DNA of 64,000 nucleotides from an uncultured Collinsella sp. (lineage in GTDB: Bacteria > Actinomycetota > Coriobacteriia > Coriobacteriales > Coriobacteriaceae): positions 12,611 through 76,610 of the forward strand of contig URAD01000001.1 of assembly GCA_900545745.1 (NCBI GenBank), written 5' to 3'. The position numbers were made by a program, and so were the translations under genes. Position 1 is the stretch's first letter; each line of letters begins with the position of its first letter. Shown here piece after piece: positions 9,571-50,055 of this stretch. The notes under the pieces are model-generated. The model ran no database searches, had not been told where the DNA came from, and was given only the letters and a program-made list of their open reading frames with translations.

Positions 9571-10221
9571 CTAGGCGTCCTTCGCGGCGAGATCGCGCGA
9601 GGTGACGATACGGTCGATCAGACCGTAGTCGAGGGCCTCGGAAGCGGTCAGGTAGTTGTCGCGCTCGGTATCGGCCTGGACCTTCTCGATGGGCTGGCCC
9701 GAGGCGTCGGACAGGATCTGGTTGAGCTCGCGACGGGTCTTCTTGATCTCCTCGGCAACGATCTCAATCTCGGTCTGCTGACCCTGGGCACCGCCGCTGG
9801 GCTGGTGAATCATGACCTTGGAGTGCGGCAGGCAGAAGCGCTTGCCCTTGGCGCCGGCCGAAAGCAGCACGGCGGCCATAGACGCGGCCATACCGACGCA
9901 AATGGTCGAGACCTGCGGCTTGATGAAGTTCATGGTGTCCAGAATCGCCAGGCCGGAGTAGACCTCGCCACCGGGCGAATTGATGTAGAGCGAGATATCC
10001 TTCTCGGCATCCTGGCTCTCAAGATGCAGCAGCTGGGCAACGACCAGGTTGGCGCTGACGGAGTTGATCTCCTCGCCCAAGAAAATGATGCGGTCGTTGA
10101 GCAGGCGCGAATAGATATCGTAGCTGCGCTCGCCGCGCGGCGTCTGCTCGATAACGTATGGCACGAGGGCGGAATCGAACTTGGCGATCATACGCATCTC
10201 CATTTCTCTCTTGCGGACCAA
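9571..10221 (-). CDS. clpP: ATP-dependent Clp protease proteolytic subunit ClpP
   Basis: [19 protein letters not shown]...YINSPGG...MIHQP reads as a ClpP core. The true start is probably an internal Met (MIAKFD). Confidence 0.9.
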
Positions 10222-10354
10222 ATTGGTTCTAGATAAACGTACGGTGCCCGCATGCTATGCATTGGCTGGCACCGTACGAAGCTACCGGATAACCGGTGTA
10301 TAACTTTACCCCATCACGGGCGCACGCATGCGCTCGCGGGCAAGGTGGCGAGAA

Positions 10355-11668
10355 TTACTCGGCGTCCTTGGCGGTCTCGTCGACCTCGGTCACCTTGGCG
10401 TTCTCGACCAGGTGGTCGACGGCCTTGGAGCGACGGATGGACTCGCGGACGGCAGGCATACGGCCATCGGCGATGAACTCGGCCTTGGAAGCCTCGACGT
10501 CCTTGACGCCAGCCTTCTCGAACTCGGCGTTGATGTCGTCCTCGGTGACCTCGATCTTGAGCTCACGGGCGAGGGCGTCGAGAGCCAGGGACTCACGGGC
10601 AACGTCGTTGGCCTGCTTGTGCAGGTCGCCGATGAACTGCTCCATGGTCAGGCCGGAAGCGGGCAGCCAGGTGTCCAGGGTCATGCCGCGGGCGGCGAGG
10701 TTGGACAGGAAGTTCTGGCCAAGCTCCTCAAAGACGGACTGCTCGTAGTCGGCGTCCATCTCGTCGAGTTGCAGGCGCTCGGCGAGAGCGGAGACGCAAC
10801 GGTTCTCCTTCTCGGCCGGGAGGCGGGAAGCCTTGTCCTGCTCGATCTCAATCTTGATGGCGTCGCGCATAGCGTCGATGCTGTCGAAGCCAAAGTCGGA
10901 CTTGACGAGCTCGTCGGTGAGCTCGGGGGTGTTGCGGACCTTGATGCCCTTGACGGTGACCTCGACGGTGTGGGTCTCGGCCTCCTCGCCCTCCTCGACC
11001 TCGTCGGTCCAGGTGACGGTCTTGACGTCGTCAACGTTAGCGCCGATCAGGGCCTCGTTGAACTCCTTGGGGTTGCTGTCGCTACCGGCGATGAGCATGC
11101 GGCCCTCGGCGGCAAAGTTGTCGGCGTTCTCGACGGCCTTGAGGTCGACGGTGACGTAGTCCTCGGCCTCGACGGCGCGACCCTCGACGTCCTCGAAGGT
11201 GGCGCGGTAGTTGAGGAGCATCTCGACCTGGTTGTTGATCTCGGACTCGGTGACCTCCGCGGGAGGCATCTCGATCTCGACGGCGTCGAAGGAGGAGAGC
11301 TCGGCAGCAGGACGCAGGGAGAACTCGACGGTGTAGGTGTAGTCCTCGTGATCCTTGGCGAGGTCGAGCTCCTTGTAGTCACCGTTCTTGGTGGGGACGA
11401 TGTCCAGCTCGTTGAGGACGGCGGGCTCGTTGGCGGCGATCAGGTCGTTGGTGGCCTGAGCGAGGGTAGCCTCGGCGCCAAGTGCGGAGTCGATGACCGG
11501 ACGGGGAGCCTTGCCGGCGCGGAAGCCCGGGAAGCGGTACTTCTTGGCGGTGTCCTTGTAGGCCTTCTTGATCGCGGCGTCGACGTCGGCGGCCGGGATG
11601 GTGACCGTAGCGGTGAGCTTGGCGTCCTTGACGTCAGAAGCGGTGATGTTCAACACGTTCCTCCTCAT
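10355..11668 (-). CDS. tig: trigger factor
   Basis: MRRNVLNITASDVKDAKLTATVTIPAADVDAAIKKAYKDTAKKYRFPGFRAGKAPRPV matches the trigger-factor N-terminal domain. It follows the clpX-clpP-tig order. Confidence 0.9.
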   Translation of the reverse strand: MRRNVLNITASDVKDAKLTATVTIPAADVDAAIKKAYKDTAKKYRFPGFRAGKAPRPVIDSALGAEATLAQATNDLIAANEPAVLNELDIVPTKNGDYKELDLAKDHEDYTYTVEFSLRPAAELSSFDAVEIEMPPAEVTESEINNQVEMLLNYRATFEDVEGRAVEAEDYVTVDLKAVENADNFAAEGRMLIAGSDSNPKEFNEALIGANVDDVKTVTWTDEVEEGEEAETHTVEVTVKGIKVRNTPELTDELVKSDFGFDSIDAMRDAIKIEIEQDKASRLPAEKENRCVSALAERLQLDEMDADYEQSVFEELGQNFLSNLAARGMTLDTWLPASGLTMEQFIGDLHKQANDVARESLALDALARELKIEVTEDDINAEFEKAGVKDVEASKAEFIADGRMPAVRESIRRSKAVDHLVENAKVTEVDETAKDAE

Positions 11669-11744
11669 ACTGCCCAGCTTATCTGAGGTGCTGGTACCTT
11701 TATGCAACAAAGTGTCGCGACGGCGTGAGCCGACGCAGGTGCGA

Positions 11745-11828
11745 TGGTGCGGGCGAAAGGACTCGAACCTTCACGGGAATCCCACCAGAACCTAAATCTG
11801 GCGCGTCTACCAATTCCGCCACGCCCGC
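11745..11828 (-). tRNA. tRNA-Leu (anticodon TAG), long variable arm
   Basis: The reverse complement reads GCGGGCGTGGCGGAATTGGTAGACGCGCCAGATTTAGGTTCTGG...GGTTCGAGTCCTTTCGCCCGCACCA. The anticodon loop is tTTAGgt. Confidence 0.85.
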
Positions 11829-11945
11829 ATGAGCGCACAGACTAGGAATGATAGCAGATACGAACGACAAGCGCACGCACACCTTTTACAGGCTCACGAC
11901 CTCACCACGAGAGCAAGCCAATAGAGCACGCCACCCCATCTCATA

Positions 11946-12012
11946 AGTTGCGGTGGAATAGGGACTGTTTGGGGCTCCAGTCCTCCAAAACAGTCCCTAT
12001 TCCACCGCAACT
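11946..12012. repeat. palindromic intergenic repeat element, copy 1 (AGTTGCGGTG-arm ... arm-CACCGCAACT)
   Basis: agttgcggtggaatagggactgttt ... aaacagtccctattccaccgcaact. The arms are ~25 bp and perfectly complementary. Confidence 0.8.
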
Positions 12013-12050
12013 TCGGTAGGACTCGGCAGCCTGGCGATGCTGGCCATGCG

Positions 12051-12235
12051 CCGGAAAGCGTGTCCCGGTTTGGGGCCTCGGAATGGGATGCAATTTCCGC
12101 TATAGCCATCAACCGGAAACTGCAACCCGTTTTGAGCCCCTATTCCGGGATGCACTTTCCGCCAAGGCCCTCAAACGGAAACTGCAGCCCACAATTCAGT
12201 TGAAAAGTGGGCTGCAGTTTCCCCGGGCTAGGCAA
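12051..12235. repeat. array of three degenerate ~60-bp tandem units, each forming a hairpin (ggaaactgca ... tgca(a/c)tttcc); the last is a perfect 14-bp stem
   Basis: Seen directly in sequence between the xdh-like operon 3' end and the copy-1 palindrome (ccggaaactgcaaccc...gggatgcactttccg; acggaaactgcagccc...gggctgcagtttcc). Confidence 0.6.
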
Positions 12236-12259
12236 TGAGCGGGTACAGCGCCTCCTCGC

Positions 12260-15091
12260 CTACTCCCCCAGCAGGGCCTTCTCGGGCGTGATCGGCAGTG
12301 AGCGAACCTGATGGCCGGTGGCGTGCGCCACGGCCGAGGCAACGGCAGCGAGCGGCGTGTTGATGACGACCTCGCCGATCGACTTGGCGCCAAACGGGCC
12401 CGTCGGCTCGTAGCTCGGCTCAAAGGCCACGCGGATGCTACCGATATCCAGTCGCGTGGGCAGCTTGTAGCTCATAAAGTTGCCGGTGCGCAGGCGGCCG
12501 CGGTCGTCGTGCTCGACAATCTCGTAGAGCGCGTGACCGATACCCTGGGCAATGCCGCCCTCGGCCTGGACGCGCGCGAGCGCCTCGTTGATCACGGTGC
12601 CGCAGTCAACGGCAGCGGCGTAATCCACCACGGTCACCTTGCCGGTGGCCTTGTCAACCTCGACCTCGGCAATGCCGGCCATAAACGGCGGAGGCGAAAC
12701 GGGCAGGCAGGCAGAGGCATGCGAGGTCAGCGCGTCGCCGCCCGCGATGTTCTTGACGCACAGGTTGGCAAAGTCGCGCAGCGTGAGGTAGCGGTTCTGC
12801 TCGCGCGCGGCACGCTCGTCGGACAGGCGCACATACTGACCATCAAAGACCACATCGGCGGCGTCCACGTCCCACATCTGGGCGGCCTTGGCGCAGATCT
12901 TCTCGCGCAGCTCGGTCGCGGCGTTCTTTGCTGCCAAGCCCGTCACGTACGTGCCCGAACTCGCGTACGAGCCGGCGTCGAACGGCGACACGTCGGTGTC
13001 CACGCCGTGCACCACAATGAGCGAGCTTTCAACGCCCAGCTCCTCGGCGGCAATCTGCGCCAGAATCGTGTCGACGCCCATGCCGTTATCGGTGGCGCCG
13101 GTACCGATGGTAATGAAGCCGTCCTCTTCCAGGCGCATATCGATGCCGGCGATGTCCACGTTAGAGATGCCCGAGCCCTGCATGGTGAGCGCGCAGCCAA
13201 GGGCACGCACGCGGTCGCCCAGGTCGACGGCTAGCGGCTTGTCGCGCCAGCCGATCATGTCCATCGCGCGCAGCAGGCAGCGGTCGAGTGCGCAGGCGTT
13301 GAGCTTCTCGTTGTAGTACTGCGGCATGATCTCGCCCTCGCGCACGATGTTCTTAAGGCGCAGGTCGGCGGGGTCCATGTGCAGCATGTCGGCGAGCTCG
13401 TTGACGGCGCTCTCCACGGCAAACTGACCCTGGGTGGCACCGTAGCCGCGATACGCGCCGCCGCGGTTGGTGTTGGTGTAGACGGCGTCCCAGCTAAAGC
13501 GGCTCGCCTTCACATGGTTGTAGATGGGCAGGCTCTTATGGCCCGAAAGGCCGATTGTCGTGGTAGCGTGCTCGCCGTACGCGCCGGCGTTAGACAGCGT
13601 GTGCAGATCGATGGCCGTGATGGTGCCGTCGTTCATGGCGCCCAGCTTGACGGTCATCTGCATCTGGTGGCGCGAGTTGCCCGCGGTGATGGTCTCCTCA
13701 CGGGTGTAGCAGCAGTAACTCGGACGGCCGGTCTGCTGGGTGACGAACGCCACGAAGATCTCGCAGCAGCCCGTCTGCTTGGAGCCAAAGCCGCCACCGA
13801 TGCGCGGCTTAATGACCTGCACCTGCGACTGCGGAATATCGAGCGACTGCGCGACCATGCGGCGCACGTGGAAGGGCACCTGCGTAGAGGTGGTCACCGA
13901 AATGCGCCCAAACGCGTCGGTCGTCGCGAAGGCTCGGAAGGTCTCCATGGGCGCGGTCTGCGTGGCCTGGCTGGTGTAGGTGCGGGTGAAGACGATGTCG
14001 CTCTGGGCAAAGGCCTCGTCCAAGTCGCCAAAGTCGCTCGTGCCGCTGCATACCAAGTTGCGCGGGACGTCGCCGCCCTGCGGAAACATAAAGGTCACGT
14101 CGCCCTCGGGGTGGACCACGATGTCGTTATCGAGTGCCTGGGTAAAGTCGAGCAGCGGCTCGAGCACCTCGTAGTCGACCTTGATGAGCTTGAGCGCCTT
14201 GTCGGCGGCCTCCTCGGTCTCGGCGGCGACGATCGCCACCTCCTCGTTTTGGTAGCGCACGAGGTTCTCGAGGATCAGGCGGTCGTAGGGACTCGGCTGC
14301 GGATAGCTCTGGCCGGCAATGGTAAAGCGGCGCTTGGGAACGTCCTCGTATGTGTAGACGCCCACGACGCCGGGTACCTTCAGTGCGCGCGACGTATCGA
14401 TGGAACGGATCTTGGCGCGGGCATAGGGGCTGCGCTTGAGCTTGACGATCAGGGCGCCGGCGGGCACCAGGTCGCCCGTGTAGACGGGACGCCCCTCGAG
14501 CAGGGCCTTCGAGTCCTTCTTGGGCTGCTTATGAGTGATCTGCTTATAGGAGACGCCGTCAGAACTGGTGTCGTTGACCGGCAGCTCGGGCATCTCAAAG
14601 CCCACCTGCACGCCGGACTCGTTGAGGAAGCGCACGATGGCGCGCAGCTGGCTCTCGTAGCCGCTGCAACGGCAGAGGTTGCCGGCGAGCTGGCGCGAGA
14701 GCTCCTCGCGCGTGGCGACGAGGCTCGGGTCCTCCTTGGCGGCGCGGGCAAGCGCCAGCACGTTCATGATGAGGCCGGGAGCGCAAAAACCGCACTGCTC
14801 GGCGCCTTCGGCAGCCATTGCGCGGGTCAGCGCCTCAGACTCGGCCTTGAGACCCTCGAGTGTGGTGATGGTATGGCCCTCAACACGGGCGGCGGGAACC
14901 GAGCAGCTCAGCACCGGGTCGCCGTCGAGCCACACCGTGCACAGACCGCAGTTGGTGGTCTCACAGGCACAGCGTACCGACGCGCAGCCCTGCTCGCGCA
15001 GCAGCGCAAAGAGCATGGTGTCGGGGGCAATCTGAACCTTGACCTTACGGCCGTTGAGCGTAAAGGAAAGATCGATGAGTTTGGCAGCCAT
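12260..15091 (-). CDS. xanthine dehydrogenase-family molybdoenzyme, fused [2Fe-2S] + molybdopterin-binding subunit (XdhD/Mop-like)
   Basis: N-terminal 2Fe-2S ferredoxin domain (CGLCTVWLDG, CRCSGY), then aldehyde oxidase/xanthine dehydrogenase a/b hammerhead and Moco-binding domains. 943 aa. Its start overlaps the FAD-subunit stop (TAATG). Confidence 0.85.
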   Translation of the reverse strand: MAAKLIDLSFTLNGRKVKVQIAPDTMLFALLREQGCASVRCACETTNCGLCTVWLDGDPVLSCSVPAARVEGHTITTLEGLKAESEALTRAMAAEGAEQCGFCAPGLIMNVLALARAAKEDPSLVATREELSRQLAGNLCRCSGYESQLRAIVRFLNESGVQVGFEMPELPVNDTSSDGVSYKQITHKQPKKDSKALLEGRPVYTGDLVPAGALIVKLKRSPYARAKIRSIDTSRALKVPGVVGVYTYEDVPKRRFTIAGQSYPQPSPYDRLILENLVRYQNEEVAIVAAETEEAADKALKLIKVDYEVLEPLLDFTQALDNDIVVHPEGDVTFMFPQGGDVPRNLVCSGTSDFGDLDEAFAQSDIVFTRTYTSQATQTAPMETFRAFATTDAFGRISVTTSTQVPFHVRRMVAQSLDIPQSQVQVIKPRIGGGFGSKQTGCCEIFVAFVTQQTGRPSYCCYTREETITAGNSRHQMQMTVKLGAMNDGTITAIDLHTLSNAGAYGEHATTTIGLSGHKSLPIYNHVKASRFSWDAVYTNTNRGGAYRGYGATQGQFAVESAVNELADMLHMDPADLRLKNIVREGEIMPQYYNEKLNACALDRCLLRAMDMIGWRDKPLAVDLGDRVRALGCALTMQGSGISNVDIAGIDMRLEEDGFITIGTGATDNGMGVDTILAQIAAEELGVESSLIVVHGVDTDVSPFDAGSYASSGTYVTGLAAKNAATELREKICAKAAQMWDVDAADVVFDGQYVRLSDERAAREQNRYLTLRDFANLCVKNIAGGDALTSHASACLPVSPPPFMAGIAEVEVDKATGKVTVVDYAAAVDCGTVINEALARVQAEGGIAQGIGHALYEIVEHDDRGRLRTGNFMSYKLPTRLDIGSIRVAFEPSYEPTGPFGAKSIGEVVINTPLAAVASAVAHATGHQVRSLPITPEKALLGE

Positions 15092-16005
15092 TAGCGCACC
15101 TCGCTAGAATCGACGCCGGGCACGCGGCGGCAGGAATACTCATCCGTGGCGAACTTAGGGATCTGCACGGTCTCGAGCTCGCGGGCAAGCGCGGCAGAAA
15201 GCTCGATGCCGGCGGCGCGGCGCACGGCCTGAATCGCCAACGGTGCCGAGATGCGGCGGCGGTAGTCAGCCGAGCCCCACAGGTTGGTGCCATAGCTCAG
15301 TGCGCGTACGGACGCGGCCAGGGCGCGAAGCTCGTCCTCGGAAGGCCGCTCGTTCACCAGGCCACACGACTCGCCCTGCAGCAAGGTCGCGCGCAGCGGG
15401 CGGGCGCCCACGGTGACATGCCAGCTGTTGTCCCACCAGGCGGCGGTGACGTTCAGCGAGGGGAAGTCCGTCGCGGCCTTGCGCACGGCCTCGTAGCTCG
15501 CACGGTAATCGTGCTTGACGACTACGACGTGCTCAATCACGTCACGCACGTAGCCCATGTCCACGAACTCCGCGAGCGGCACGCGGCCGGCGCCCGTCAG
15601 CTCAACATACGAATCGAGCGCCAAAAAGGCCGAGAGCACGTCCGAAAAACCAAAGCGGCCGTAGATGCTGCCGCCCACCGTGGCGGTATTGCGCAGCTGC
15701 ACGCCCACGATGTCGTGGATGGCGAACTCAAAGACATTGTTGACAAGCGCGTTGAGCCCGGCATGACGCTCGAGCTGGCGCAGGGTGCACATGGCACCGA
15801 TGCGAAACTCGGTCTCGGTCTCCTCGATCTGATCGAGTCCGCAGGCCGAAAGGTCAATCGCCGTCGCCACGCGACGCGAACCCAGGCGCATCCAGATGCC
15901 GCCGCCCACAATCTTGTTGTTGCGGTTCTTCTGCAAGAGCTCATAGGCTTCGGCCGCGTTTCCAACACGGACGTAGGTACCGAACTTGAGCACGTTCTCC
16001 CCCAT
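15091..16005 (-). CDS. xanthine dehydrogenase-family FAD-binding subunit (CoxM/XdhB/YgfM-like)
   Basis: FAD-binding PCMH-type domain (KFGTYVRVGNAAEAYELL...KIVGGG). It sits immediately upstream of, and is translationally coupled to, the Fe-S/Moco subunit. Confidence 0.8.
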   Translation of the reverse strand: MGENVLKFGTYVRVGNAAEAYELLQKNRNNKIVGGGIWMRLGSRRVATAIDLSACGLDQIEETETEFRIGAMCTLRQLERHAGLNALVNNVFEFAIHDIVGVQLRNTATVGGSIYGRFGFSDVLSAFLALDSYVELTGAGRVPLAEFVDMGYVRDVIEHVVVVKHDYRASYEAVRKAATDFPSLNVTAAWWDNSWHVTVGARPLRATLLQGESCGLVNERPSEDELRALAASVRALSYGTNLWGSADYRRRISAPLAIQAVRRAAGIELSAALARELETVQIPKFATDEYSCRRVPGVDSSEVR

Positions 16006-16088
16006 CTCTTCACTTGTCCAGTACTTTTAAGTGTACCAAACGAGGAGCCGCACACCGTTTTAGGACAAAATCCACCCACCCATCCATA

Positions 16089-16156
16089 ACTTGCGGTGAT
16101 ATACGGACTGATTAGCCGTTCTGGGACGCTAAACAGTCCGTATATCACCGCAAGTT
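16089..16156. repeat. palindromic intergenic repeat element, copy 2
   Basis: acttgcggtgatatacggactgatt ... aaacagtccgtatatcaccgcaagtt. The arm substitutions are mirrored in the partner arm. Confidence 0.75.
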
Positions 16157-16235
16157 ATGAGGAGTCCTCCGGGATAGAAAAGGCTCCCAGCCGGAATGGC
16201 TGGGAGCCTCATCACATGCTATGTCGAGCGAAGAT

Positions 16236-17591
16236 TTAGCAGACGCCCTGGGCGAGCATGGCGTCGGCGACCTTCAGGAAGCCGGCGATGTTGGCGCCCA
16301 TGACGAAATTGCCCTCCTGGCCATACTCCTTGGCGGTGTCGTCCACGTTGTGGAACATGCCGCGCATGAGCTGCTCGAGCTTGCCGTCGACCTCCTCGAA
16401 GGTCCAGGACAGGTGCTCGGCATTCTGGCTCATCTCCAGGCCGGATACGAGTACGCCGCCGGCGTTGGCAGCCTTGCCGGGCATAAAGGCGACGCCGTTC
16501 TCCTGGAAGTAGGTCGTGGCCTCGATGGTCGTAGGCATGTTCGCGCCCTCGCCGACCACCGTGCAGCCGTTGGCGACGAGCGCCTGGGCGTCCTCGAGCA
16601 GCAGCGTGTTCTCGCGAGCGCAGGGCAGCGCGATGTCGCAGGGAAGCTGCCACACGCCGCGGCCGTCGCCCTCGTGCCACACGGCGCTGGGCCTCTCGTC
16701 AACGTACATAGCGAGCGTAACGCCCTTGTCGTGGCCAGAGCGCTTCTTGTTGTAGATGAGCTCGAGCACGGTGTAGTCGATGCCGTCGGGATCCTCGACC
16801 CAGCCGTGGGTATCGGAGCAGGCGAGCACCTTGCCGCCGAGCTGAGTGACCTTCTGGACCGCGTAGATAGCGACGTTGCCGGAGCCGTGAACGACGACGT
16901 TCTTGCCCTCGAAGGAGTCGCCGCGGCTCTTGAGGTACTCGTCCACAAAGTAGGCCAGACCGTAACCGGTGGCCTCGGTACGGGCGAGCGAGCCGCCAAA
17001 GGAGAGGCCCTTGCCGGTGAGGACGCCGGTCCACTCGTTGGTCAGGCGCTTGTACTGACCGAACAGGTAGGCAACCTCGCGGCCGCCAACGCCCAGGTCG
17101 CCGGCGGGAACGTCGGTGTTGGGACCGATGTGGCGATAGAGCTCGGTCATGAAGGACTGGCAGAAGTGCATGATCTCGTTGTTGGACTTGCCCTTGGGGT
17201 CAAAGTCGGAGCCGCCCTTGCCGCCGCCCATGGGAAGGGTGGTCAGGCTGTTCTTGAGAATCTGCTCCAGACCCAGGAACTTGAGCATGCCCAGGGTGAC
17301 CGTCGGGTTAAAGCGCAGGCCGCCCTTGTAAGGTCCAATGGCAGAGTTGAACTCGACGCGGTAGCCGCGATTGACCTGGACCTTGCCCTGGTCGTCGACC
17401 CAGGGGACACGGAACATGACGATGCGCTCGGGCTCGACGAGGCGCTCAAGCAGGGCGGCCTCCTCGTACTCGGGATGGGCGTCGAGCGCCGGCTGGATGG
17501 TGCCGAGGATCTCGGTCGCGGCCTGGATGAACTCAGGCTGCTCGGGATAGCGGGCCTTGAGCTCGTCGAGAACTTTCTGCGTGTAGCTCAT
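16236..17591 (-). CDS. gdhA: NADP-specific glutamate dehydrogenase
   Basis: Strong GdhA signature (GGGKGGSDFDPKGKS, GVLTGKG). Start at MSYTQKVLDEL with a GGAGGAAG RBS. Confidence 0.9.
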   Translation of the reverse strand: MSYTQKVLDELKARYPEQPEFIQAATEILGTIQPALDAHPEYEEAALLERLVEPERIVMFRVPWVDDQGKVQVNRGYRVEFNSAIGPYKGGLRFNPTVTLGMLKFLGLEQILKNSLTTLPMGGGKGGSDFDPKGKSNNEIMHFCQSFMTELYRHIGPNTDVPAGDLGVGGREVAYLFGQYKRLTNEWTGVLTGKGLSFGGSLARTEATGYGLAYFVDEYLKSRGDSFEGKNVVVHGSGNVAIYAVQKVTQLGGKVLACSDTHGWVEDPDGIDYTVLELIYNKKRSGHDKGVTLAMYVDERPSAVWHEGDGRGVWQLPCDIALPCARENTLLLEDAQALVANGCTVVGEGANMPTTIEATTYFQENGVAFMPGKAANAGGVLVSGLEMSQNAEHLSWTFEEVDGKLEQLMRGMFHNVDDTAKEYGQEGNFVMGANIAGFLKVADAMLAQGVC

Positions 17592-17848
17592 GCTTCCTCC
17601 AATTGATGGAAAAGAAAAGTGTCGTTCGAGGCGCCCCATGCGCCGCGAGCTTTATCGAGTATGGATAATATCGCACTGTTGCAGCAAAGTTTCGCATAAG
17701 CCGACGAGCGGATGTTTCGTTTTGATTACGATGCAGGTAGAAGCGTTTTTGAGTGCCTGACGTGCAAAACCCGTGTTTCAAACCTGTTTCGTCCACGTGT
17801 TCCAAACCACCACATTGGGGACAGGCACCTTTGTGGTGGTGTTGGTGG

Positions 17849-18244
17849 TTAGAGGACGAGCTGGTGGTAGTCGGCGGGGGTTACGCGGCCCTCGGTGGCG
17901 GCGCGGAAGGCGGCGAGGGCATCGCCCGAGAACGGCATGGCCCAGCACAGTCCGCAGCCGGCGGTGATGGAGCCGGGCAGCGGCATGATGCGCCCAGGAA
18001 CACCGGCGGCAAGGCACAGCTGTTCGCATTCCATCACATCGAAGGTGCTGTCGAACGACACGATGATTTTGCGTTCATGGTCGAGAGCATCACCGGACGG
18101 GCCTTCGCGGTGTGCATCGCGATACGCCGCGGCGGCCGCTTCCTCTTCCGCAGTATGTCCACAGCCATCGCAACCGCAGGTACAGGGTTCGGACCCGTCG
18201 CAAGTGCAAGGTTCTCCCGTGTCGGGACAAATATCGTGAGACAT
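17849..18244 (-). CDS. DUF3343-like (putative Se/S carrier) protein with a Cys-rich N-terminal extension
   Basis: The C-terminal ~75 aa (KIIVSFDSTFDVMECEQLCLAAGVPGRIMPLPGSITAGCGLCW) matches the DUF3343 pattern. The N-terminus CPDTGEPCTCDGSEPCTCGCDGCGH is a metal-binding-like Cys cluster. Confidence 0.5.
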   Translation of the reverse strand: MSHDICPDTGEPCTCDGSEPCTCGCDGCGHTAEEEAAAAAYRDAHREGPSGDALDHERKIIVSFDSTFDVMECEQLCLAAGVPGRIMPLPGSITAGCGLCWAMPFSGDALAAFRAATEGRVTPADYHQLVL

Positions 18245-18259
18245 GGCAACTCCAATCGT

Positions 18260-18892
18260 CTAGGCGAGTAACTCGGCCGCCGCAAACTCCTCGGGCGTAT
18301 TGACGTTCTCGAAGCAGAGCGTCGAGCCGGCGGCCTTAACGATCTGCGACTCATCCATATAACCAGCCTGAACGCGATTGATCAGGCAGCGAATGCGCTG
18401 GCGGTCGCAGGCGAGCAGCTCTTGGGCAACCGGCGCACACGCGTCACGGCGCCAGACGGCGCAAAGCGGCTCAATCCCCCGCTCCTCGCGCGGCACGCAC
18501 GCGTCGAGCGCCTCGACCTCAACACGATCCGCAAGAGCGCCGATGAGTTCCGGCGAGACAAACGGCATATCGCAGGCAACGATCGCCACGAGAGGCAGCC
18601 GAGCCGCAGCCAACGAGCTCGCGATGCCGCGCATGGCGCCCGCCGGCCCTTCAAGGTCCGCCACCACACGCGGCACCAGGCCGCCAAACGCGCGCTCTTC
18701 AAGGTGGGCAAGCTCGCAGGGGCGCGACGTCGTGACGACCAGTTCGCCGGCAACTGGCGCCAGCCGACCCAGCACGCGCTCGATGAGCGGCTCGCCGCAA
18801 AACGCCATGCGCGCCTTATCGCAGCCCATACGCGAGGACAACCCGCCCGCTTGAACGACGCAAGAAAGATCGGCCCGTCTTACGGTAGTCAT
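18260..18892 (-). CDS. MobA-like nucleotidyltransferase (molybdenum cofactor guanylyl/cytidylyltransferase MobA/MocA family)
   Basis: LSCVVQAGGLSSRMG.DKA...GEPLIERVL is a MobA-like NTP-transferase motif. Start at MTTVRR (18892). The 5'-extended track ORF (to 19126) reads as Arg/Cys-rich non-coding translation. Confidence 0.65.
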   Translation of the reverse strand: MTTVRRADLSCVVQAGGLSSRMGCDKARMAFCGEPLIERVLGRLAPVAGELVVTTSRPCELAHLEERAFGGLVPRVVADLEGPAGAMRGIASSLAAARLPLVAIVACDMPFVSPELIGALADRVEVEALDACVPREERGIEPLCAVWRRDACAPVAQELLACDRQRIRCLINRVQAGYMDESQIVKAAGSTLCFENVNTPEEFAAAELLA

Positions 18893-19047
18893 ACGGCAAA
18901 CCACCCCCATCGGCATGCTAAAAACCCGGTGCACGAGGCCATGCGCCATCGCCGAAAAAGAAGGCGACACGACAACCCCGCGCCAAAACAAAACAGCGCC
19001 TTTGCGGCACGCAGCAAGACCGCGAGCACAAAAGCGCTGGTAGCGTA

Positions 19048-19144
19048 TGGCGGGAACGTATGTGAATCGAACACATCCAAGACGTTTTGCACGCCTCGCA
19101 ACGGTTTTGAGGACCGCGGAGCCCACCGGAGCCCATCCGTTCCC
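19048..19144 (-). tRNA. selC: tRNA-Sec (selC), anticodon UCA
   Basis: The reverse complement is GGGAACGGATGGGCTCCGGTGGGCTCCGCGGTCCTCAAAACCGTTGCGAGGCGTGCAAAACGTCTTGGATGTGTTCGATTCACATACGTTCCCGCCA (97 nt). It has a long acceptor stem, CTCCGGTG D-arm, UCA anticodon and long variable arm, and is collinear with my recollection of E. coli selC. Confidence 0.8.
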
Positions 19145-19201
19145 AAGTGCGCCGGTATTTTACCAAACCGAAACGGCTCCATCCCAAAAAGACGAGCAAG
19201 A

Positions 19202-19267
19202 AGTTGCGGTGGAATAGTTCCTGTTTTTGCTGCCAAAGCCCCCAACTAGGAACTATTTCACCGCAAC
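19202..19267. repeat. palindromic intergenic repeat element, copy 3
   Basis: agttgcggtggaatagttcctgttt ... actaggaactatttcaccgcaac. The arm variants (gttcc/ggaac) are compensatory. Confidence 0.75.
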
Positions 19268-19293
19268 AGAGGAGACGGGGGCAGGTGACCGGC

Positions 19294-21261
19294 CTAGCGC
19301 AGGGAGCGCAGGCCGCCGGCATCCTTGTCAAGGACTGTGAAGCGTACGGCATCTAGATGCTCAAGGATGCTGATGGCGCGCTTGCGCGACACGCCCAGGG
19401 ACTCGCGTAGCACACTCGTGGTGGCAGCGCCGCCGGCGTCGGTGATGGCAGCAGCGACAAGCTCGCGCGCATGGGCCTCGGCGGTAGCGGACAGGGCAAC
19501 GTCACGTTCGACCTTCACGATGGAACGGTTGAGCGAAAGCTCGCGCAGCGCACGCGTCATGGTGTCGCGATCGAGCTGGAGTTGCTCGCCCACCTCGGGC
19601 AACGTCGGCGCATCGAGGCCGGCTTCGTCCAGCAAGGCAACGATGCGTTCGCTGGCCTCGCGCACCACGCGTGCCGCCGCGGCGGCCGAATGCGGATCGA
19701 ACACCTCGGCGCCCTCGGAGGCGCACACGCCGCGAGAGCAGCCCTCGGAAATCAGGGCTGCGGCAACTGTATCGTCAGCGGTAGGCCAAGCAGCATGGGC
19801 GACGGCGCCGGGCGTAAAGCCCGTCTCCTTGGGGGCAGCCGCGTGCATGGCAGACAGGGTCGCCGCCAGGGCATCCATCGCAGCGTCAAGCACCACGGCG
19901 TCCGCCAAGAGGTCCGTTTCACCCGCGGCAAGTTTGCGAACGGAGCCCTGCGTCACCAACCCGCGCAGCGCGGCATCGACCTGGCCGACACCAAGATCCA
20001 AAGCCTCGGCAACATCAATCACCGTAACCGGCAGCGCCTGCAGCGCAAGCCAAGCGCCCACACCGCCCGCGATATCGCCGGACTCGAGCGCCACATACAG
20101 CGCACGCTCCCCCGCCGAAAGCTCGCGCGAGCGACGGCAGCGCGAAAGCAGCACGCGCCCGCCGCCGATGAGCATGACCGGCGAATAGGACAGCACCACG
20201 GCATGGTCGCCGGCACGCAGCGGCAGCGGTTCCTCCAAGCGCACCTGCACGGTACGGGTCTCGCCCACCGCCATGGGGGCCTCGCCCTCCATGAACATGA
20301 TGCGGCCGACGACCTCGGCCGTACCGGCCATCACGTGCACGCGCGCACCCGACTCGAGCACACGCGGCTTGGCTCCCTCGCGACCCAAAAACGTAAACGC
20401 CATCATAAAGCGCAGCGTCTGGCCAAAGTGACCCTCCACGCCGAGCATCTCACCGCGATCGAGCGCAGCGACGCCATCGCCCACCAGGTTGAGCGCCACG
20501 CGCTGACCGGGCAGCGCCCGCTGCGTGTCGCCATGCACTTGGATCCCGCGTACGCGGCAGGCCGTGCGCGACGGCAGCGCGACGAGCTCATCGCCCACCG
20601 CAACCGGCGCATCGTGCAGCGTTCCCGTCACGACGGTGCCGGCGCCCTTGATCGTAAAGCAGCGGTCAATCGGCAAGCGCGGCGCGGCATCGGTGCGCTC
20701 GGCACGGTCGCGGCAGGTATCCCAGCAGGCATCCACGCACTCATCGAGCGCTGCCAGCAGCGCATCAATCCCCTCGCCCGTCTTAGACGACACAGGCACG
20801 ATCGGCGCGCCCGCAAACACGGTACCCGACAAAAAGTCGTCGACATCGAGCTCGGCAAGCTCGGTCATCTCGGCATCAGCCAAATCGCACATCGTCAGCG
20901 CGACCACCATATGCGTAACGCCCAGCAGTTCCAGCACATGCACGTGCTCGCGGGTCTGCGGCATCACGCCCTCGACGGCAGAGACCACCAACACGGCAAC
21001 ATCAATGCCCGTGGCACCCTGCACCATGGCGCGCAGGTAATGGGCATGCCCGGGCACGTCGACCAGGCCAACGATCTTGCCGCTCGGCAGCGCCAGCTCG
21101 CCAAAGCCCAGCTCCACGGTCATACCGCGACGGCGCTCAACCTCCAGACGGTCGGGATTCTTGCCGGTCAGCGCCTCGATCAGTGCGGACTTACCGTGGT
21201 CGACGTGGCCCGCCGTGCCAACGATAACGGGACACTCCACCAACGCCTGAACCTCACTCAT
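19294..21261 (-). CDS. selB: selenocysteine-specific translation elongation factor SelB
   Basis: N-terminal GTPase (GTAGHVDHGKS, DVPGH) and a long winged-helix C-terminus. It overlaps selA by 4 nt. Confidence 0.9.
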   Translation of the reverse strand: MSEVQALVECPVIVGTAGHVDHGKSALIEALTGKNPDRLEVERRRGMTVELGFGELALPSGKIVGLVDVPGHAHYLRAMVQGATGIDVAVLVVSAVEGVMPQTREHVHVLELLGVTHMVVALTMCDLADAEMTELAELDVDDFLSGTVFAGAPIVPVSSKTGEGIDALLAALDECVDACWDTCRDRAERTDAAPRLPIDRCFTIKGAGTVVTGTLHDAPVAVGDELVALPSRTACRVRGIQVHGDTQRALPGQRVALNLVGDGVAALDRGEMLGVEGHFGQTLRFMMAFTFLGREGAKPRVLESGARVHVMAGTAEVVGRIMFMEGEAPMAVGETRTVQVRLEEPLPLRAGDHAVVLSYSPVMLIGGGRVLLSRCRRSRELSAGERALYVALESGDIAGGVGAWLALQALPVTVIDVAEALDLGVGQVDAALRGLVTQGSVRKLAAGETDLLADAVVLDAAMDALAATLSAMHAAAPKETGFTPGAVAHAAWPTADDTVAAALISEGCSRGVCASEGAEVFDPHSAAAAARVVREASERIVALLDEAGLDAPTLPEVGEQLQLDRDTMTRALRELSLNRSIVKVERDVALSATAEAHARELVAAAITDAGGAATTSVLRESLGVSRKRAISILEHLDAVRFTVLDKDAGGLRSLR

Positions 21262-22715
21262 CGAGCAATCGCCTTCTTAACGCACGCGACGAGCGTCGTT
21301 GCCGCCGTCTCGATATCGCGGTCACCCACGAGCGTGCGCACGTCAAACAAAATGCGATCGTGCGAGGTTCGTGTGACGACCGGCGTGTCGAAGTCCTGGA
21401 CAAGCGAGCGCTTAAGCGCGTCGACCGTCAGGCGCTCGTCAACAAGGCGCACGGCAACGCACATCGTGGGTAGCTCCATGGTAGGCAGCGAACCGCCACC
21501 GGGTGTCGAGGACTCCTCGACAATCTCCAACTCAACGGCGCACGGGCAACCGGCCTTATCGAGCCCGGCGACCATACAATCGCGCAGCTTACGGGCACGA
21601 CGCTCCAGATGAGCCTGCGGAAGCGTGAGCATGCTGAGCACCGGCACCTCGCGATGGGCAACATCGGCACCGTCCATGTAGATGCGAAGCGTGGCCTCAA
21701 GCGCCGTGAGCGCCAACTTGCCCGGACGCAGAGCACGCATAAGCGGATGCGACCCGCAGGCCTGGACCAGATCGCGACGACCCATGATAATGCCCGCCTG
21801 TGCGGCACCGAGCAGCTTATCGCCCGAACACGACACGATATCAAGCCCCGCCGCGACCGAGGTCGGCGTGGTCTCCTCGCCGCCGCGAACCAGGATATCG
21901 TCGGGCAGCAGCGCGCCAGACCCCTGGTCCTCGTAGAACAGCAGACCATGCTTGTGGGCCAGGGCGGCAAGCTCCCGAGAGCTCACTTCCTCGTGAAAAC
22001 CCTCGATGCGATAGTTGGAAGGATGGACCTTGAGGATCATGGCCGTTTCGGGCGTGATGGCGCGCTCGTAGTCGCTCAAATGCGTGCGGTTGGTGGCCCC
22101 GACCTCAACGAGCTTGGCACCCGAGGCCTCCATAACATCGGGGATACGGAAGCTGCCGCCGATCTCGACAAGCTCGCCGCGGCTGACGATAACCTCCTTG
22201 CCCGCAGCGTGAGTCGCCAGTACCAGCAGCACCGCGGCGGCATTGTTGTTGACCACGAGCGCGTCCTCGGCACCGGTGAGAGAGCGAATCAGCTGGGCAG
22301 CGTGCTCCTTGCGCGACCCACGCGAGCAGGTGTCCACGCTGTACTCGAGCGTGCTGTACCCGCGCGCGACCTCGGCCACGGCCTTGGCGGCCGACTCCGC
22401 GAGCGGGGCGCGACCCAAGTTGGTATGGATGACCACGCCCGTAGCGTTGACGGCGGGACGCAGGCTCGGCAGCGCGGAGCGGTGAGCACGCCACTCGATG
22501 GCCGAAGCCAGGTCGCGCTTAGAGCGCGGGGCGGCACCGGCGCGAATGGCGGCGCGCTCCTCGTCGAGCTCGGCCGTGACGGCGGCATGCACCACCGCGT
22601 CGCAGGTCTCCCCCGCCGCCTTCACCACCGGCCACTCGGCAAGCAGCTCGTTGACGGAAGGAATAGCGCGCAGGCGGGCGCGTACCTCATCAGACATGTT
22701 CTGGCTATCGCTCAT
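21258..22715 (-). CDS. selA: L-seryl-tRNA(Sec) selenium transferase SelA
   Basis: PLP-lysine region SGDKLLGAAQAGIIMGRRDLV. 485 aa. Sits upstream of selB. Confidence 0.9.
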   Translation of the reverse strand: MSDSQNMSDEVRARLRAIPSVNELLAEWPVVKAAGETCDAVVHAAVTAELDEERAAIRAGAAPRSKRDLASAIEWRAHRSALPSLRPAVNATGVVIHTNLGRAPLAESAAKAVAEVARGYSTLEYSVDTCSRGSRKEHAAQLIRSLTGAEDALVVNNNAAAVLLVLATHAAGKEVIVSRGELVEIGGSFRIPDVMEASGAKLVEVGATNRTHLSDYERAITPETAMILKVHPSNYRIEGFHEEVSSRELAALAHKHGLLFYEDQGSGALLPDDILVRGGEETTPTSVAAGLDIVSCSGDKLLGAAQAGIIMGRRDLVQACGSHPLMRALRPGKLALTALEATLRIYMDGADVAHREVPVLSMLTLPQAHLERRARKLRDCMVAGLDKAGCPCAVELEIVEESSTPGGGSLPTMELPTMCVAVRLVDERLTVDALKRSLVQDFDTPVVTRTSHDRILFDVRTLVGDRDIETAATTLVACVKKAIAR

Positions 22716-22767: not shown

Positions 22768-24885
22768 TTACTCGTCATTATCCTCGCGCGCGACAATCTT
22801 TTCCACGCGAACGGCGTTTTCCTGGGTGAGCGCGGCGCCCGTCAACGGGTCCCAGCGCAGCGGCGTGTGGTCGAGCGGGCCAACGCCCAAGGCCTGCCGG
22901 CCACCAACCTCAGCACCGAATGCGCGTCCGCCGGGAGCGGCCGAGGTGAAGATGCACGCCGGATGCAGATAGGGCGTCGTCTCCACGCGCACGCGGTCGC
23001 GGCCCATGTCGCTCACAAGCTCGACGATCTCCCCGTCGGCGATGCCCATGCGCGCAGCAGCATCGGCATTCATCTGCACGGCATCCAGGTCCGATCCAGC
23101 CTCGGCGGCACCCTGGGCCGCAAGCCTGCGCGAGGTGTGCGACTCAAAGGGACGGTTACCGCTAATGAGGCGAAACATCCCCGGGCCAGGCTCCACCATG
23201 GGAGCGATCCAGTTGGGTACACGACCCATGCCGGCTCGTTCCCATACGTCGCTTGCCAGCGCAATCTTGCCGCCGGCAAGCGGAATCACCGGCTCACCCG
23301 TGCGCGTCGGCAGCGTTATGCCCGTATCGGCCCAGCCGCACTCCATGAGCTCGTCCAGATTGATCCCAAAAGGCGCCACCTGGGCAGCCGCCAGATCGTC
23401 AGACGTAAACTGGAAGTACTCGCCCACGCCACACGCCTGCGCCAGACCGGCAAAAATCTCCCGACCGGGACGTGTGTCGTCATGCTGCACAGGCAGCACG
23501 GCGTTGCGGTAGAACACGCGCGAATCGTTGGCGCCCACGACCATTCCCACGCCGCGGTCGGCCTCCAGATACGTCACGTCGGGCAGCACGAAGTCGGAAG
23601 CGCGCGCCGTCTCGGACCAGCGAATATCAATCGTCACGAGCAAGTCGAGCTGCTGCAAGATGCCCAACCAAGCCTGCGCATTGCCATAGCCCGCACCGGG
23701 GTTACTGGCATAGACGATGAGCCCACGCAAATCGCCGGCAAGAATCGACTGGCCGATGGTCGTGCACAGACCGCGCTCGGGGTCGACGAGCGGATAACGT
23801 TCGGACCCCAACTTGGGCTCACGTGGCATCGACGGCGTCGCGAAACGCGCAGGGTCCAAATCGCCCAACGCAAGCGGTGTGGGCGGGTTGAGGGCACCGC
23901 CCGCATGTCCGATGCAGCCCAGCAGCACATCGACCAAACAGATAGCGCGCGCGGTCTGGGTGCTATTGGCATACGCGATGCCGATGCCACCATGAAAGCC
24001 TGCATCCACCACAGCGGCAGGCGCGGCGGCAGCTAGCTCGCGCGCCGTGGCGACAATCTCTGCGGCCGGCACGTCGCACATCGACTCGGCCCACTCGGGC
24101 GTCCAAGCACTGGCCGCCTGCGCCAGCTCGTCAAACCCCGTGGTATAGCGGGCAACAAACTCGTGATCGTACAGGTCCTCGGCAATCAACACGTGGACAA
24201 TACCCAACAGCAGCGCCAAGTCGCAGCCCGGGCGCACGCGGAGCCAGCGATCGGCAATAGCGGCCGAACCGCTGCGCCGGGGGTCGACCACGATAATCTT
24301 AGCCCCACGTCGACGGGCATCGTTGAGCGCATCAACGGCCCCCATCGTCGACGAATCGACAATGGAACGCCCCAAATACATGATGCAATCGGTATGCGCC
24401 AGGTCGGAGGCGGGACTATAGCCCAAGCTATGCTCCCAACCGGTGAGACGGCTTACCTCGCAGGCACCATCGGCGCCGTACACGTTGGGCGAACCCAGCG
24501 CGTGCATAAGACGATAGGCCCAGTAGCGGTCGAACGAGGGCACGCCGAGTGTCATGCCCAGCGCACGAGGCCCGCACTCGTCAACAATCCCCAAAAGACG
24601 CTCGGCAATCTGAGCAAACGCCTCGTCCCAGGTAATCGCATCGAACCCCGAGCCATCAGCTCGTCGGCGCATGGGGTGCAAAATCCGGTCGCGCTCGTCA
24701 AACGGCATTGCCAGGCGATGCCGTCCGCGGGCGCACAGGGCACGCGCCGCGCACGGATGCCCCGGCACCGGCAACTCGGCCACCACGCGACCGTCCTCAA
24801 CGCGTGCCGCAAAGGCGCAATCGGCATAACATCCCCCGCATGTGGTCACCACGGCGCGACCGTCACGCTTCACAGCAGATGCCAT
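22768..24885 (-). CDS. molybdopterin (bis-MGD) oxidoreductase, Fdh/Nap-like, Cys-type, no Tat signal
   Basis: N-terminal C-x2-C-x3-C Fe-S motif (TCGGCYADC), MopB-family domains and a candidate Mo-ligand Cys (GADGACEVS). No in-frame TGA. Start at MASAVKRDG (24885). Confidence 0.7.
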   Translation of the reverse strand: MASAVKRDGRAVVTTCGGCYADCAFAARVEDGRVVAELPVPGHPCAARALCARGRHRLAMPFDERDRILHPMRRRADGSGFDAITWDEAFAQIAERLLGIVDECGPRALGMTLGVPSFDRYWAYRLMHALGSPNVYGADGACEVSRLTGWEHSLGYSPASDLAHTDCIMYLGRSIVDSSTMGAVDALNDARRRGAKIIVVDPRRSGSAAIADRWLRVRPGCDLALLLGIVHVLIAEDLYDHEFVARYTTGFDELAQAASAWTPEWAESMCDVPAAEIVATARELAAAAPAAVVDAGFHGGIGIAYANSTQTARAICLVDVLLGCIGHAGGALNPPTPLALGDLDPARFATPSMPREPKLGSERYPLVDPERGLCTTIGQSILAGDLRGLIVYASNPGAGYGNAQAWLGILQQLDLLVTIDIRWSETARASDFVLPDVTYLEADRGVGMVVGANDSRVFYRNAVLPVQHDDTRPGREIFAGLAQACGVGEYFQFTSDDLAAAQVAPFGINLDELMECGWADTGITLPTRTGEPVIPLAGGKIALASDVWERAGMGRVPNWIAPMVEPGPGMFRLISGNRPFESHTSRRLAAQGAAEAGSDLDAVQMNADAAARMGIADGEIVELVSDMGRDRVRVETTPYLHPACIFTSAAPGGRAFGAEVGGRQALGVGPLDHTPLRWDPLTGAALTQENAVRVEKIVAREDNDE

Positions 24886-25007
24886 CTCGATTACCCCTTT
24901 CATCAGCCAAACACAACAGACCAAAAGCCCGGCAACGAGCCCCAGACCCAAAAAGCCTCCCGCACGGCAACGCCCCGCGGGAGGCCCAACGTCAAACAGA
25001 CGGTACT

Positions 25008-25847: not shown

Positions 25848-25886
25848 GTCAATCACTTCTTTCCTAATCAGCAGGGGCAAGCGCTG

Positions 25887-27754: not shown

Positions 27755-27756
27755 GG

Positions 27757-28473: not shown

Positions 28474-28474
28474 A

Positions 28475-30247: not shown

Positions 30248-30250
30248 TCG

Positions 30251-31810: not shown

Positions 31811-31813
31811 GGA

Positions 31814-32467: not shown

Positions 32468-32480
32468 GTCGTTCTACCTC

Positions 32481-33938: not shown

Positions 33939-33953
33939 TGTTTCTCCCTTCTC

Positions 33954-34880: not shown

Positions 34881-34892
34881 GCTCTCCCCTCC

Positions 34893-49900: not shown

Positions 49901-49924
49901 GGCTCTCTTCCAATCTAAACATCA

Positions 49925-50052: not shown

Positions 50053-50055
50053 AAG

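Follow-up and report, generated by a model that had tools for sequence, protein, structure and literature searches.

The locus described here raises the question of whether a molybdenum hydroxylase and the selenium-related genes encoded beside it constitute a single functional system. It lies in a 64,000-nt stretch of contig URAD01000001.1 from an uncultured Collinsella species (hereafter, the window), which has a GC content of about 62-65% and genes densely arranged on the minus strand. An initial annotation of positions 12260-19144 had combined a two-subunit XdhD/YgfM-like hydroxylase, a MobA/MocA-like nucleotidyltransferase, a cysteine-rich DUF3343 protein and the adjoining selC and selAB genes into a candidate module for a hydroxylase with a labile selenium cofactor. 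All of these genes are present and correctly placed, and each is backed by homology rather than by the length of its open reading frame (ORF) alone. The apparent module, for its part, is a juxtaposition of two units separated by the glutamate dehydrogenase gene gdhA, and not one system. We consider it probable that, in a genome of the Collinsella aerofaciens type, two independent units meet here: a molybdenum hydroxylase operon (Unit A) and a selenocysteine and formate hydrogenlyase island (Unit B) that does not serve it. The ClpP encoded in the window matches exactly a protein named for C. aerofaciens that is present on at least 1000 contigs.

Unit A (12260-16005) consists of a gene for a 304-aa FAD subunit (15091-16005; FAD_binding_5, PF00941, 81 bits) followed by a gene for a 943-aa large subunit in which the 2Fe-2S and molybdenum cofactor (Moco) regions are fused (12260-15091; Pfam Fer2/Fer2_2, Ald_Xan_dh_C, MoCoBD_1 and MoCoBD_2). 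Like gdhA and all features of Unit B, both genes are on the minus strand. The TAA stop codon of the FAD gene and the ATG of the large-subunit gene share one base (TAATG), and this overlap, together with the domains found, bears out the earlier description of a fused subunit coupled to a separate FAD subunit. The N-terminal domain of the large subunit carries two [2Fe-2S] sites (Cys 43/48/51/63 and 100/103/140/142); C-terminal to it lie an a/b-hammerhead and two Moco-binding domains, with the motifs GGGFGSKQ (432-439) and YRGYG (547-551) and a catalytic glutamate, Glu907, within GAKSIGE. These domains and the retained catalytic residue place the protein in the xanthine dehydrogenase (XDH)/aldehyde oxidase Moco family. 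The FAD subunit has only four scattered cysteines and no cysteine cluster along its whole length.

An intergenic region of 230 nt upstream of Unit A (16006-16235), presumed to hold a promoter of its own, separates it from gdhA (16236-17591; NADP-specific glutamate dehydrogenase, 451 aa; NF006929, 714 bits, cut-off 536). This gene stands between Unit A and the DUF3343/mobA pair, from which a further 257 nt divide it, and every Collinsella locus inspected keeps it at this site, including those that lack the enzyme. A scan of 11600-19400 for promoters and terminators returned counts at or below shuffle expectation; two terminator-like hairpins of note lie between tRNA-Sec and mobA. In 27 Atopobiaceae loci, an FAD gene and a fused FeS-Moco gene (57-62% identity) form a lone pair among unrelated genes, and the gene order of the present locus is also found on human-gut contigs. 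Given the overlapping stop and start codons, the 230-nt upstream gap, the lone pair in Atopobiaceae and the absence of the enzyme from two related loci that retain the selenium genes (L011 and L013), Unit A is an independent operon, self-contained and autonomous, for a FAD/[2Fe-2S]2/Moco hydroxylase. The genes assigned to a single selenium-dependent hydroxylase module do share one orientation within 7 kb, in a window that further encodes SelD, YedF and SclA; gdhA, with a spacer exceeding 200 nt on either side, nevertheless divides them, and the Atopobiaceae have the enzyme without any of the other genes. Such a module is, in our assessment, very unlikely, and the genes of Unit B further argue against it.

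Unit B extends from about 17849 upward and comprises mobA, the cysteine-rich DUF3343 gene, tRNA-Sec, selB and selA, a PhsA-like gene, focA, the hyc genes and fdhF. The gene for tRNA-Sec (selC, anticodon TCA; 19048-19144) was identified with ARAGORN and by Rfam RF01852 (64.6 bits), and is followed by selB (19294-21261; TIGR00475, 279 bits, cut-off 242) and selA (21258-22715; TIGR00474, 520 bits, cut-off 268). Profile matches then identify a PhsA-like bis(molybdopterin guanine dinucleotide) (bis-MGD) enzyme (22768-24951), focA (25008-25886) and hycI/hycH with the hydrogenase subunits of formate hydrogenlyase, a complete module (25887-37533). The last gene, fdhF (37600-39873), has an in-frame TGA, read in the sequence at 39402-39404, that encodes selenocysteine (Sec) within the motif VDNCARTUHGPTV; a plain ORF finder splits the gene into two ORFs at this codon, whose position we take to correspond to Sec140 of E. 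coli FdhH. Encoding selenocysteine formate dehydrogenase H, fdhF comes first among the enzyme genes of the formate hydrogenlyase operon. Since this Sec-encoding gene lies about 15 kb upstream of them, selA, selB and tRNA-Sec have an evident client. The same three genes are dispensable for the labile selenium cofactor, a further point against a single module. That cofactor requires SelD, YqeB and YqeC (PMC2276186; 10.1101/2025.04.24.650524). For annotation, the lesson is that proximity of selA, selB and selC is no evidence for the labile-selenium trait, being here fully explained by a selenocysteine formate dehydrogenase.

The nucleotidyltransferase of Unit B (18260-18892; NTP_transf_3 in Pfam; gene callers prefer a start at 18829, giving 189 aa) had been thought more logically a MocA-type cytidylyltransferase, in keeping with an XDH-type enzyme. 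Comparison with NCBIfam models reverses this suggestion. The protein scores 128 bits with MobA/MobB NF011056, 101 bits with MobA TIGR02665, which is among its best models yet remains below the cut-off of 151.85, and 35 bits with MocA TIGR03310, against a cut-off of 186. A tblastn search with E. coli MocA found no match to this gene or elsewhere in the window (E<0.01), while the MocA homologs encoded beside yqeC and yqeB in relatives of this Collinsella score highest with the MocA model, at 95-109 bits. In the relatives (L011, L013), mobA consistently follows selB and tRNA-Sec, and the copy in the window is near fdhF and the PhsA-like gene, both of which encode bis-MGD enzymes. As judged from its model scores and setting, the gene is thus predicted to encode a MobA-type guanylyltransferase fitting the bis-MGD enzymes FdhF and PhsA-like, rather than a cytidylyltransferase for an XDH-type enzyme, which further weakens the case for one module.

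The DUF3343/Se_S_carrier paralog that starts 15 nt past the mobA stop codon (17849-18244; 131 aa) matches PF11823 over residues 60-123 (51.8 bits, gathering threshold 25) and carries seven cysteines at positions 6-28 of its N-terminal part. This extension is the least expected feature of the region. Its motif, (I)CPDTGExCTCDGxEPCTCGxCxCGHTxEE, is kept in relatives down to 52-58% identity, and because of this conservation we regard the extension as real coding sequence under selection. Its length varies among proteins of 131-194 aa, being longer in some relatives; in the L011 copy (10001-10585; the L013 copy is at 10001-10417) it has grown to a metallothionein-like stretch, GCCGGDSCTCDDGCEGECGDNCGDGCSCGHHGH. 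A Pfam scan of the extension alone returned no family at E<=10, and a PDB sequence search with the whole protein gave nothing meaningful. DUF3343 proteins have been proposed as Se/S chaperones associated with YedF and Sec lyase (Lin et al. 2015, PMC5322559), which would favor a single module. With these putative carriers the window protein shares its C-terminal 70 residues, including the cysteine of AGCG (Cys97), which is invariant in the DUF3343 alignment. It differs from the typical PF11823 protein of 80-100 aa, which lacks any such extension, by N-terminal additions that range among relatives over 55-120 residues rich in Cys, Asp and Gly. Like the PF11823 carriers, which cluster with YedF and Sec lyase, the cysteine-rich copy of relatives either lies between sclA and selD or directly follows selD.

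The gene orders in these relatives bear directly on its association. L011 reads selA-selB-tRNASec-mobA-yedF-sclA-DUF3343(Cys-rich)-selD-gdhA-tRNALeu-tig and L013 reads selAB-tRNASec-mobA-selD-DUF3343(Cys-rich), and neither has xdh genes. Even in loci without the enzyme, the genes for the nucleotidyltransferase and the cysteine-rich protein thus keep their association with selAB, tRNA-Sec and selD, and from this context we conclude that the cysteine-rich protein is tied to selenium supply and not to the hydroxylase. The earlier observation of a cysteine-rich DUF3343 gene beside mobA, with sel genes next to it, is therefore upheld as to its presence and position, but not as to its link with the enzyme. 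Unit B is a Sec, bis-MGD and formate hydrogenlyase system that includes a transferase of the MobA type and a DUF3343 paralog linked to selenium; it would provide selenocysteine insertion and bis-MGD for formate dehydrogenase H, a component of the neighboring formate hydrogenlyase. Three of the four arguments first advanced for the module (the MocA-like gene, the DUF3343 adjacency and the sel adjacency) do not hold; the label of a labile-selenium, purine-type hydroxylase survives as a candidate for the enzyme itself. Of the findings first named as refuting it, neither holds, since yqeB and yqeC are reported for the species and the enzyme does not group with aldehyde oxidoreductases.

What the enzyme does was approached through its family placement, using NCBIfam equivalog cut-offs for class assignment and E. 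coli reference proteins from the ygf/yqe region. The best NCBIfam match of the large subunit is XdhA_XDHase (606 bits, cut-off 780), followed by the E. coli XdhA model (572, cut-off 916), XdhD TIGR03313 (532, cut-off 1102, or precisely 1101.9), the alpha subunit of 4-hydroxybenzoyl-CoA reductase (4-HBCR) TIGR03194 (468, cut-off 995) and Se_dep_XDH TIGR03311 (376, cut-off 830). The FAD subunit gives weak matches of 44-60 bits to YgfM, XdhB and the beta subunit of glyceraldehyde dehydrogenase, far under their cut-offs (for YgfM TIGR03312, 47 bits against 241.5). Assignment to XdhABC (NF043082/83/84) falls short for all three models, at 606 vs 780, 44 vs 310 and 114 vs 217. Over its full length XdhD is 35% identical to the window protein (973 aa), and identity in the Moco domain amounts to 38.6% for XdhD, 35.0% for XdhA and 26.8% for the TIGR03311-type XdhAC. 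In a neighbor-joining tree, the window protein joins unfused Collinsella forms and then, successively, the Atopobiaceae proteins, a clostridial homolog, Bacilli homologs and XdhD, with XdhA outside; the catalytic Glu, RGYG and GGGFG.KQ are conserved features. On these comparisons the enzyme is best described as an ordinary member, with a known architecture, of an uncharacterized XdhD-side subfamily of the xanthine dehydrogenase family, and it does not cluster with aldehyde oxidoreductases. A bovine Glu802-equivalent, a position that we presumed to be mapped by the GGGFGGKE motif, was considered as a substrate marker and dropped, because Gln is common to E. coli XdhA, XdhD and the whole clade.

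The likeness to XdhD-YgfM is therefore genuine in part. Both systems place an FAD gene before a fused [2Fe-2S]-Moco gene, share GGGFG.KQ and GAKSI.E, and XdhD is the nearest E. coli paralog, so that the original XdhD/YgfM-like designation stands for architecture and closest E. coli relative; it fails at the model cut-offs and at the Glu606 loop (ILGAIGE606GKA). This loop is present in XdhD and in Bacilli homologs, is lacking in the window protein and in every Coriobacteriia ortholog, and has been proposed to orient urate for isoxanthine formation (10.1101/2025.05.19.654654). At the RGYG motif the window enzyme has R where XdhD has Q, and, unlike its E. coli counterpart, it has no adjoining ygfK or ssnA. 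These differences matter for the idea that the enzyme is the Collinsella FAD-dependent urate reductase/2,8-dioxopurine dehydrogenase (DOPDH), equivalent to E. coli XdhD-YgfM, which reduces urate with NADH (10.1101/2025.05.19.654654). The shared subunit architecture and the fact that an ortholog is the sole XDH-family enzyme seen beside uricolytic genes in one relative (L083) speak for such an assignment. We nonetheless hold it to be improbable, since the loop is missing here while the Bacilli homologs in uricolytic clusters retain it, neither ygfK nor ssnA is nearby, and likely C. aerofaciens contigs already have a TIGR03311 XdhAC-type enzyme by their uricolytic genes.

Other members of the family offer partial parallels as well. 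XdhABC (NF043082-84, PRK09970) shares with the window enzyme the three-cofactor FAD/FeS/Moco layout and the lack of the XdhD loop, and provides the best models for its Moco (606 and 572 bits) and FeS (114-119 bits) domains; the FAD subunit, however, scores only 44-47 bits against cut-offs of 287-310, and the E. coli gene order is Moco-FAD-FeS rather than FAD followed by FeS-Moco. The TIGR03311 XdhAC enzymes (the C. sporogenes DOPDH, or EF2570 type) have a fused FeS-Moco polypeptide, as in the window, and occur in the same kind of organism beside yqeBC, but they have no FAD subunit, carry a Glu at the end of GGGFGGKE in place of the Gln of the window enzyme, and are only 27% identical in the Moco domain. 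Thauera HcrABC (4-HBCR, 1RM6) has the same FAD/FeS/Moco three-component layout. HcrB typically carries an extra [4Fe-4S] insertion. The window FAD subunit has no insertion of this kind and there are no aromatic-CoA genes near the enzyme, for which reasons a 4-HBCR-type function was rejected as the leading idea.

Orthologs in relatives bear on how the operon may have arisen and on what it has been associated with. In Collinsella ihumii (L008), the ortholog occupies the same slot between gdhA and tRNA-Leu/tig as three genes (FAD-FeS-Moco), with focA-yedF-sclA-DUF3343-selD, and no selAB or mobA, upstream of gdhA. In L053, yqeC(-), yqeB (TIGR03309, 348 bits, cut-off 220) and an XdhC-family maturation factor, followed by another three genes, precede gdhA-FAD-FeS-Moco-tig, again with three separate enzyme genes. 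The order in L083 is ygeX-ygeY-ygeW-yqeA(carbamate kinase)-mocA-hyuA-yqeC(-)-yqeB-xdhC-like-ldhD-like-gdhA-FAD-FeS-Moco-tig, with a Moco subunit 63% identical to that of the window; here the uricolytic genes, the carbamate kinase and YqeC exceed their NCBIfam cut-offs, while the proteins resembling MocA (95 bits vs 186) and XdhC (227 vs 350) have these models as best matches below cut-off. The unfused orthologs of L053 and L083 thus lie 3-6 kb from yqeB/yqeC/mocA/xdhC and uricolytic genes, with gdhA in between. Unfused homologs in metagenome-assembled genomes of Bacilli/Erysipelotrichaceae (42-46% identity) are found in mocA-FAD-FeS-Moco-hyuA-ssnA clusters, with yqeA/ygeX nearby. Because the same-slot orthologs of L008, L053 and L083 are unfused, the FeS-Moco fusion is labile and no family marker, and must have arisen independently of that in E. 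coli XdhD. The fusion appears to be recent from the sequences compared, and the operon would derive from a FAD-FeS-Moco three-gene operon through fusion of the last two genes; the linkers of the fused forms are too variable to tell one fusion event from two (in Collinsella and in Atopobiaceae).

These neighborhoods make selenium dependence and a purine substrate plausible for the Unit A enzyme, and what is known of the species agrees with this. The marker genes yqeB and yqeC had been noted to lie outside the window, as tblastn with the E. coli proteins confirms (no match in 64 kb, E<0.01), and C. aerofaciens ATCC 25986 is scored SelD+, SelA+, SelB+, YbbB-, YqeB+ and YqeC+ (PMC5029168 Table S1). 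Of the components of the selenium-dependent molybdenum hydroxylase system of Haft & Self, SelD is encoded in the window; a yqeB/yqeC/mocA/xdhC neighborhood is absent there and from the 27 Atopobiaceae loci, but borders the unfused orthologs of L053 and L083, with gdhA in between. Two reports state that C. aerofaciens degrades uric acid (10.1101/2022.07.24.501321; 10.1101/2025.04.24.650524); the second adds that YqeBC and SelD occur in every strain possessing the uricolytic cluster, C. aerofaciens included, and that the carbamate kinase of C. aerofaciens is elsewhere on the chromosome (10.1101/2025.04.24.650524). When metagenomes were scanned with the L083 YgeW, one dominant type of human-gut cluster emerged, which has 60-62% GC, lacks carbamate kinase and is ordered ygeX-ygeY-ygeW-mocA-hyuA-yqeC(-)-yqeB-xdhC-xanthine permease. 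From their GC content, abundance and missing carbamate kinase, these contigs (including L087) appear to be from C. aerofaciens. In the most abundant YqeB cluster (P0379, 2059 members), which we do not assign to this species, xdhC-yqeC-yqeB are found among housekeeping genes at 62-64% GC.

Several observations weigh against a selenium-dependent purine hydroxylase. The window holds no yqeB, yqeC, mocA, xdhC, purine permease or uricolytic gene, and an Rfam search of the whole window at gathering thresholds returned four tRNAs only, with no purine, Moco or other riboswitch upstream of Unit A. The enzyme misses every NCBIfam equivalog cut-off, and its best PDB sequence match is 4-HBCR (1RM6; 315 bits, residues 189-938). 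In L087, a fused FeS-Moco protein 4 kb upstream of the uricolytic cluster scores 1128 bits with TIGR03311 (cut-off 830), so that, with such an enzyme beside it, YqeBC already has a canonical client if these contigs are those of C. aerofaciens. In L011, which lacks the enzyme, the selenium island still lies upstream of gdhA, and the adjacency of enzyme and island in L053, L083 and L008 could be a by-product of both neighboring gdhA; seen in several Collinsella lineages, this adjacency is suggestive, not conclusive. Within 10 kb of the 27 Atopobiaceae loci there is no selenium, Moco-maturation or purine gene. Finally, Olsenella uli DSM 7084 (L041) has an intact ortholog (58-60% identity), is scored SelD-, YqeB- and YqeC- (PMC5029168 Table S1) and, in Liu et al. 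2022 (Table S1, 10.1101/2022.07.24.501321), did not consume uric acid. This ortholog in a reportedly selenium-negative strain argues against an obligatory need for selenium in the subfamily.

It is hence possible, if on the whole unlikely, that the enzyme is a selenium-independent hydroxylase with a sulfido-Mo center, acting on a non-purine substrate (an aromatic N-heterocycle, an aldehyde or an aryl-CoA), and that its proximity to selenium genes is coincidental. The O. uli ortholog, in a strain that is both negative for the selenium traits and non-uricolytic, the Atopobiaceae loci, the missed XDH cut-offs and the nearest structures (after 4-HBCR, the D. gigas aldehyde oxidoreductase at 288 bits, with classical xanthine dehydrogenases lower) are what such an enzyme would lead one to expect. 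Yet the same-slot Collinsella orthologs lie 3-6 kb from yqeB/yqeC/mocA/xdhC and the uricolytic genes, the next outgroup with informative context, the Bacilli, has its homologs inside uricolytic clusters, and the FAD subunit, with four scattered cysteines only, lacks a 4Fe-4S insertion like that of 4-HBCR. A selenium-independent enzyme would be one more uncharacterized member of a large family.

Returning to selenium and purines, we regard a purine substrate for the Unit A enzyme as an even prospect, with a compound of the xanthine/hypoxanthine type more likely than urate. Selenium may reach the Mo center through YqeBC encoded elsewhere in the genome, although we are somewhat less than evenly disposed to this view. 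The enzyme would hydroxylate, or in reverse dehydroxylate, an N-heterocycle, electrons passing between the FAD, the two [2Fe-2S] clusters and the Mo-pterin site with its catalytic glutamate, and the FAD subunit would exchange them with a pyridine nucleotide or similar carrier, the partner being presumed. YqeB/YqeC, MocA and an XdhC-like chaperone, with genes outside the window, may mature the enzyme in this selenium-using species. If the human-gut contigs are those of C. aerofaciens, the enzyme would be the second of the XDH family in the species, with a role analogous to that of the FAD-containing XDH of C. sporogenes; according to 10.1101/2025.04.24.650524, that XDH is SelD-dependent by mutant phenotype, and the XdhAC/DOPDH family is likewise SelD-dependent in C. 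sporogenes. A tentative joint proposal, which we hold with considerable doubt, is that the Unit A enzyme represents a third selenium-dependent purine-hydroxylase lineage of gut Actinobacteria, apart from XdhAC/DOPDH and XdhABC, that would feed hypoxanthine/xanthine into the 2,8-dioxopurine pathway of C. aerofaciens, and that the cysteine-rich DUF3343 protein is a metallothionein-like selenium (or metal) buffer or relay for Sec/FDH-H.

The function of this enzyme is of interest because C. aerofaciens is among the commonest human gut Actinobacteria and anaerobic uric acid degradation has been linked to host urate balance and gout. In the published pathway work, selenium-dependent DOPDH and XDH are defined in clostridia, not in Actinobacteria (Liu et al.). 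A Collinsella purine hydroxylase, if confirmed, would supply the purine-hydroxylase step still missing from gut Actinobacteria and, if selenium-dependent, would extend the few known enzymes with a labile selenium cofactor by one lineage.

Further selenium-supply genes, also on the minus strand, are found farther along the window. They comprise a sclA-like cysteine/selenocysteine lyase gene (44767-45921), a second, short DUF3343 gene (about 45903-46154; 83 aa; PF11823, 67.9 bits), a long form of yedF (46174-46800) and selD (46861-47910; TIGR00476, 346 bits, cut-off 125). The short DUF3343 gene, between yedF and the sclA-like gene, lacks the cysteine-rich extension, and the two DUF3343 paralogs thus stand in two selenium contexts. 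The selD product is itself a selenoprotein, MAKDTMRLTSMTAASG-U-AAKLAPG, with its start ATG at 47910, an in-frame TGA (Sec) at 47860-47862 and the Sec context TAASGUAAK; the plain ORF begins only past the TGA. With fdhF and selD the window encodes two selenoproteins, as many as PMC5029168 (Table S2) lists for C. aerofaciens. The modABC and moeA genes are also within the window. Next to selD, the minus strand (49136-52731) encodes an activase of the acyl-CoA-dehydratase type and two anaerobic reductases of the double-cubane-cluster kind (NF040772, 490-495 bits); CoA-substrate-specific activase/2-hydroxyglutaryl-CoA dehydratase-like genes are listed beside selD, yedF and DUF3343 in a STRING table for Slackia (PMC5322559).

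Additional observations concern the neighbors and relatives of both units. The PhsA/polysulfide-reductase-like bis-MGD protein encoded between focA and selA, in the same place in L001, L011 and L013, has no obvious twin-arginine signal in its first residues and no adjoining gene for a partner 4Fe-4S or membrane subunit. A gene for a HycB/YgfS-like 4Fe-4S ferredoxin lies just upstream of fdhF (about 39906-40400). The 90%-identity cluster of the Unit A large subunit has about 50,000 metagenomic members, mixed with copies of the 304-aa FAD subunit; this joint occurrence of 943-aa and 304-aa proteins in cluster P0001, like that of 705-aa beside 485-aa forms in the SelA cluster, looks like an artefact of clustering or of gene calling (read-through), and the member counts need to be taken with care. 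In rumen Bacilli/Erysipelotrichaceae, the uricolytic clusters of L055, L057, L062, L066, L069 and L073 (about 15500-19040) include a second XDH-family pair, made up of a Moco subunit about 25% identical to that of the window, with the motif GGAFGGKE, and an FeS subunit; because this second pair carries the canonical GGAFGGKE, these clusters encode two different Mo hydroxylases. In high-GC relatives of this Collinsella, L085 (12483-16700) and L084 (299-10154), selD-yedF-DUF3343-sclA lie inside or abut the mocA-yqeC-yqeB-xdhC/uricolytic genes, so that selenium-supply and selenium-cofactor genes form one island, without selAB.

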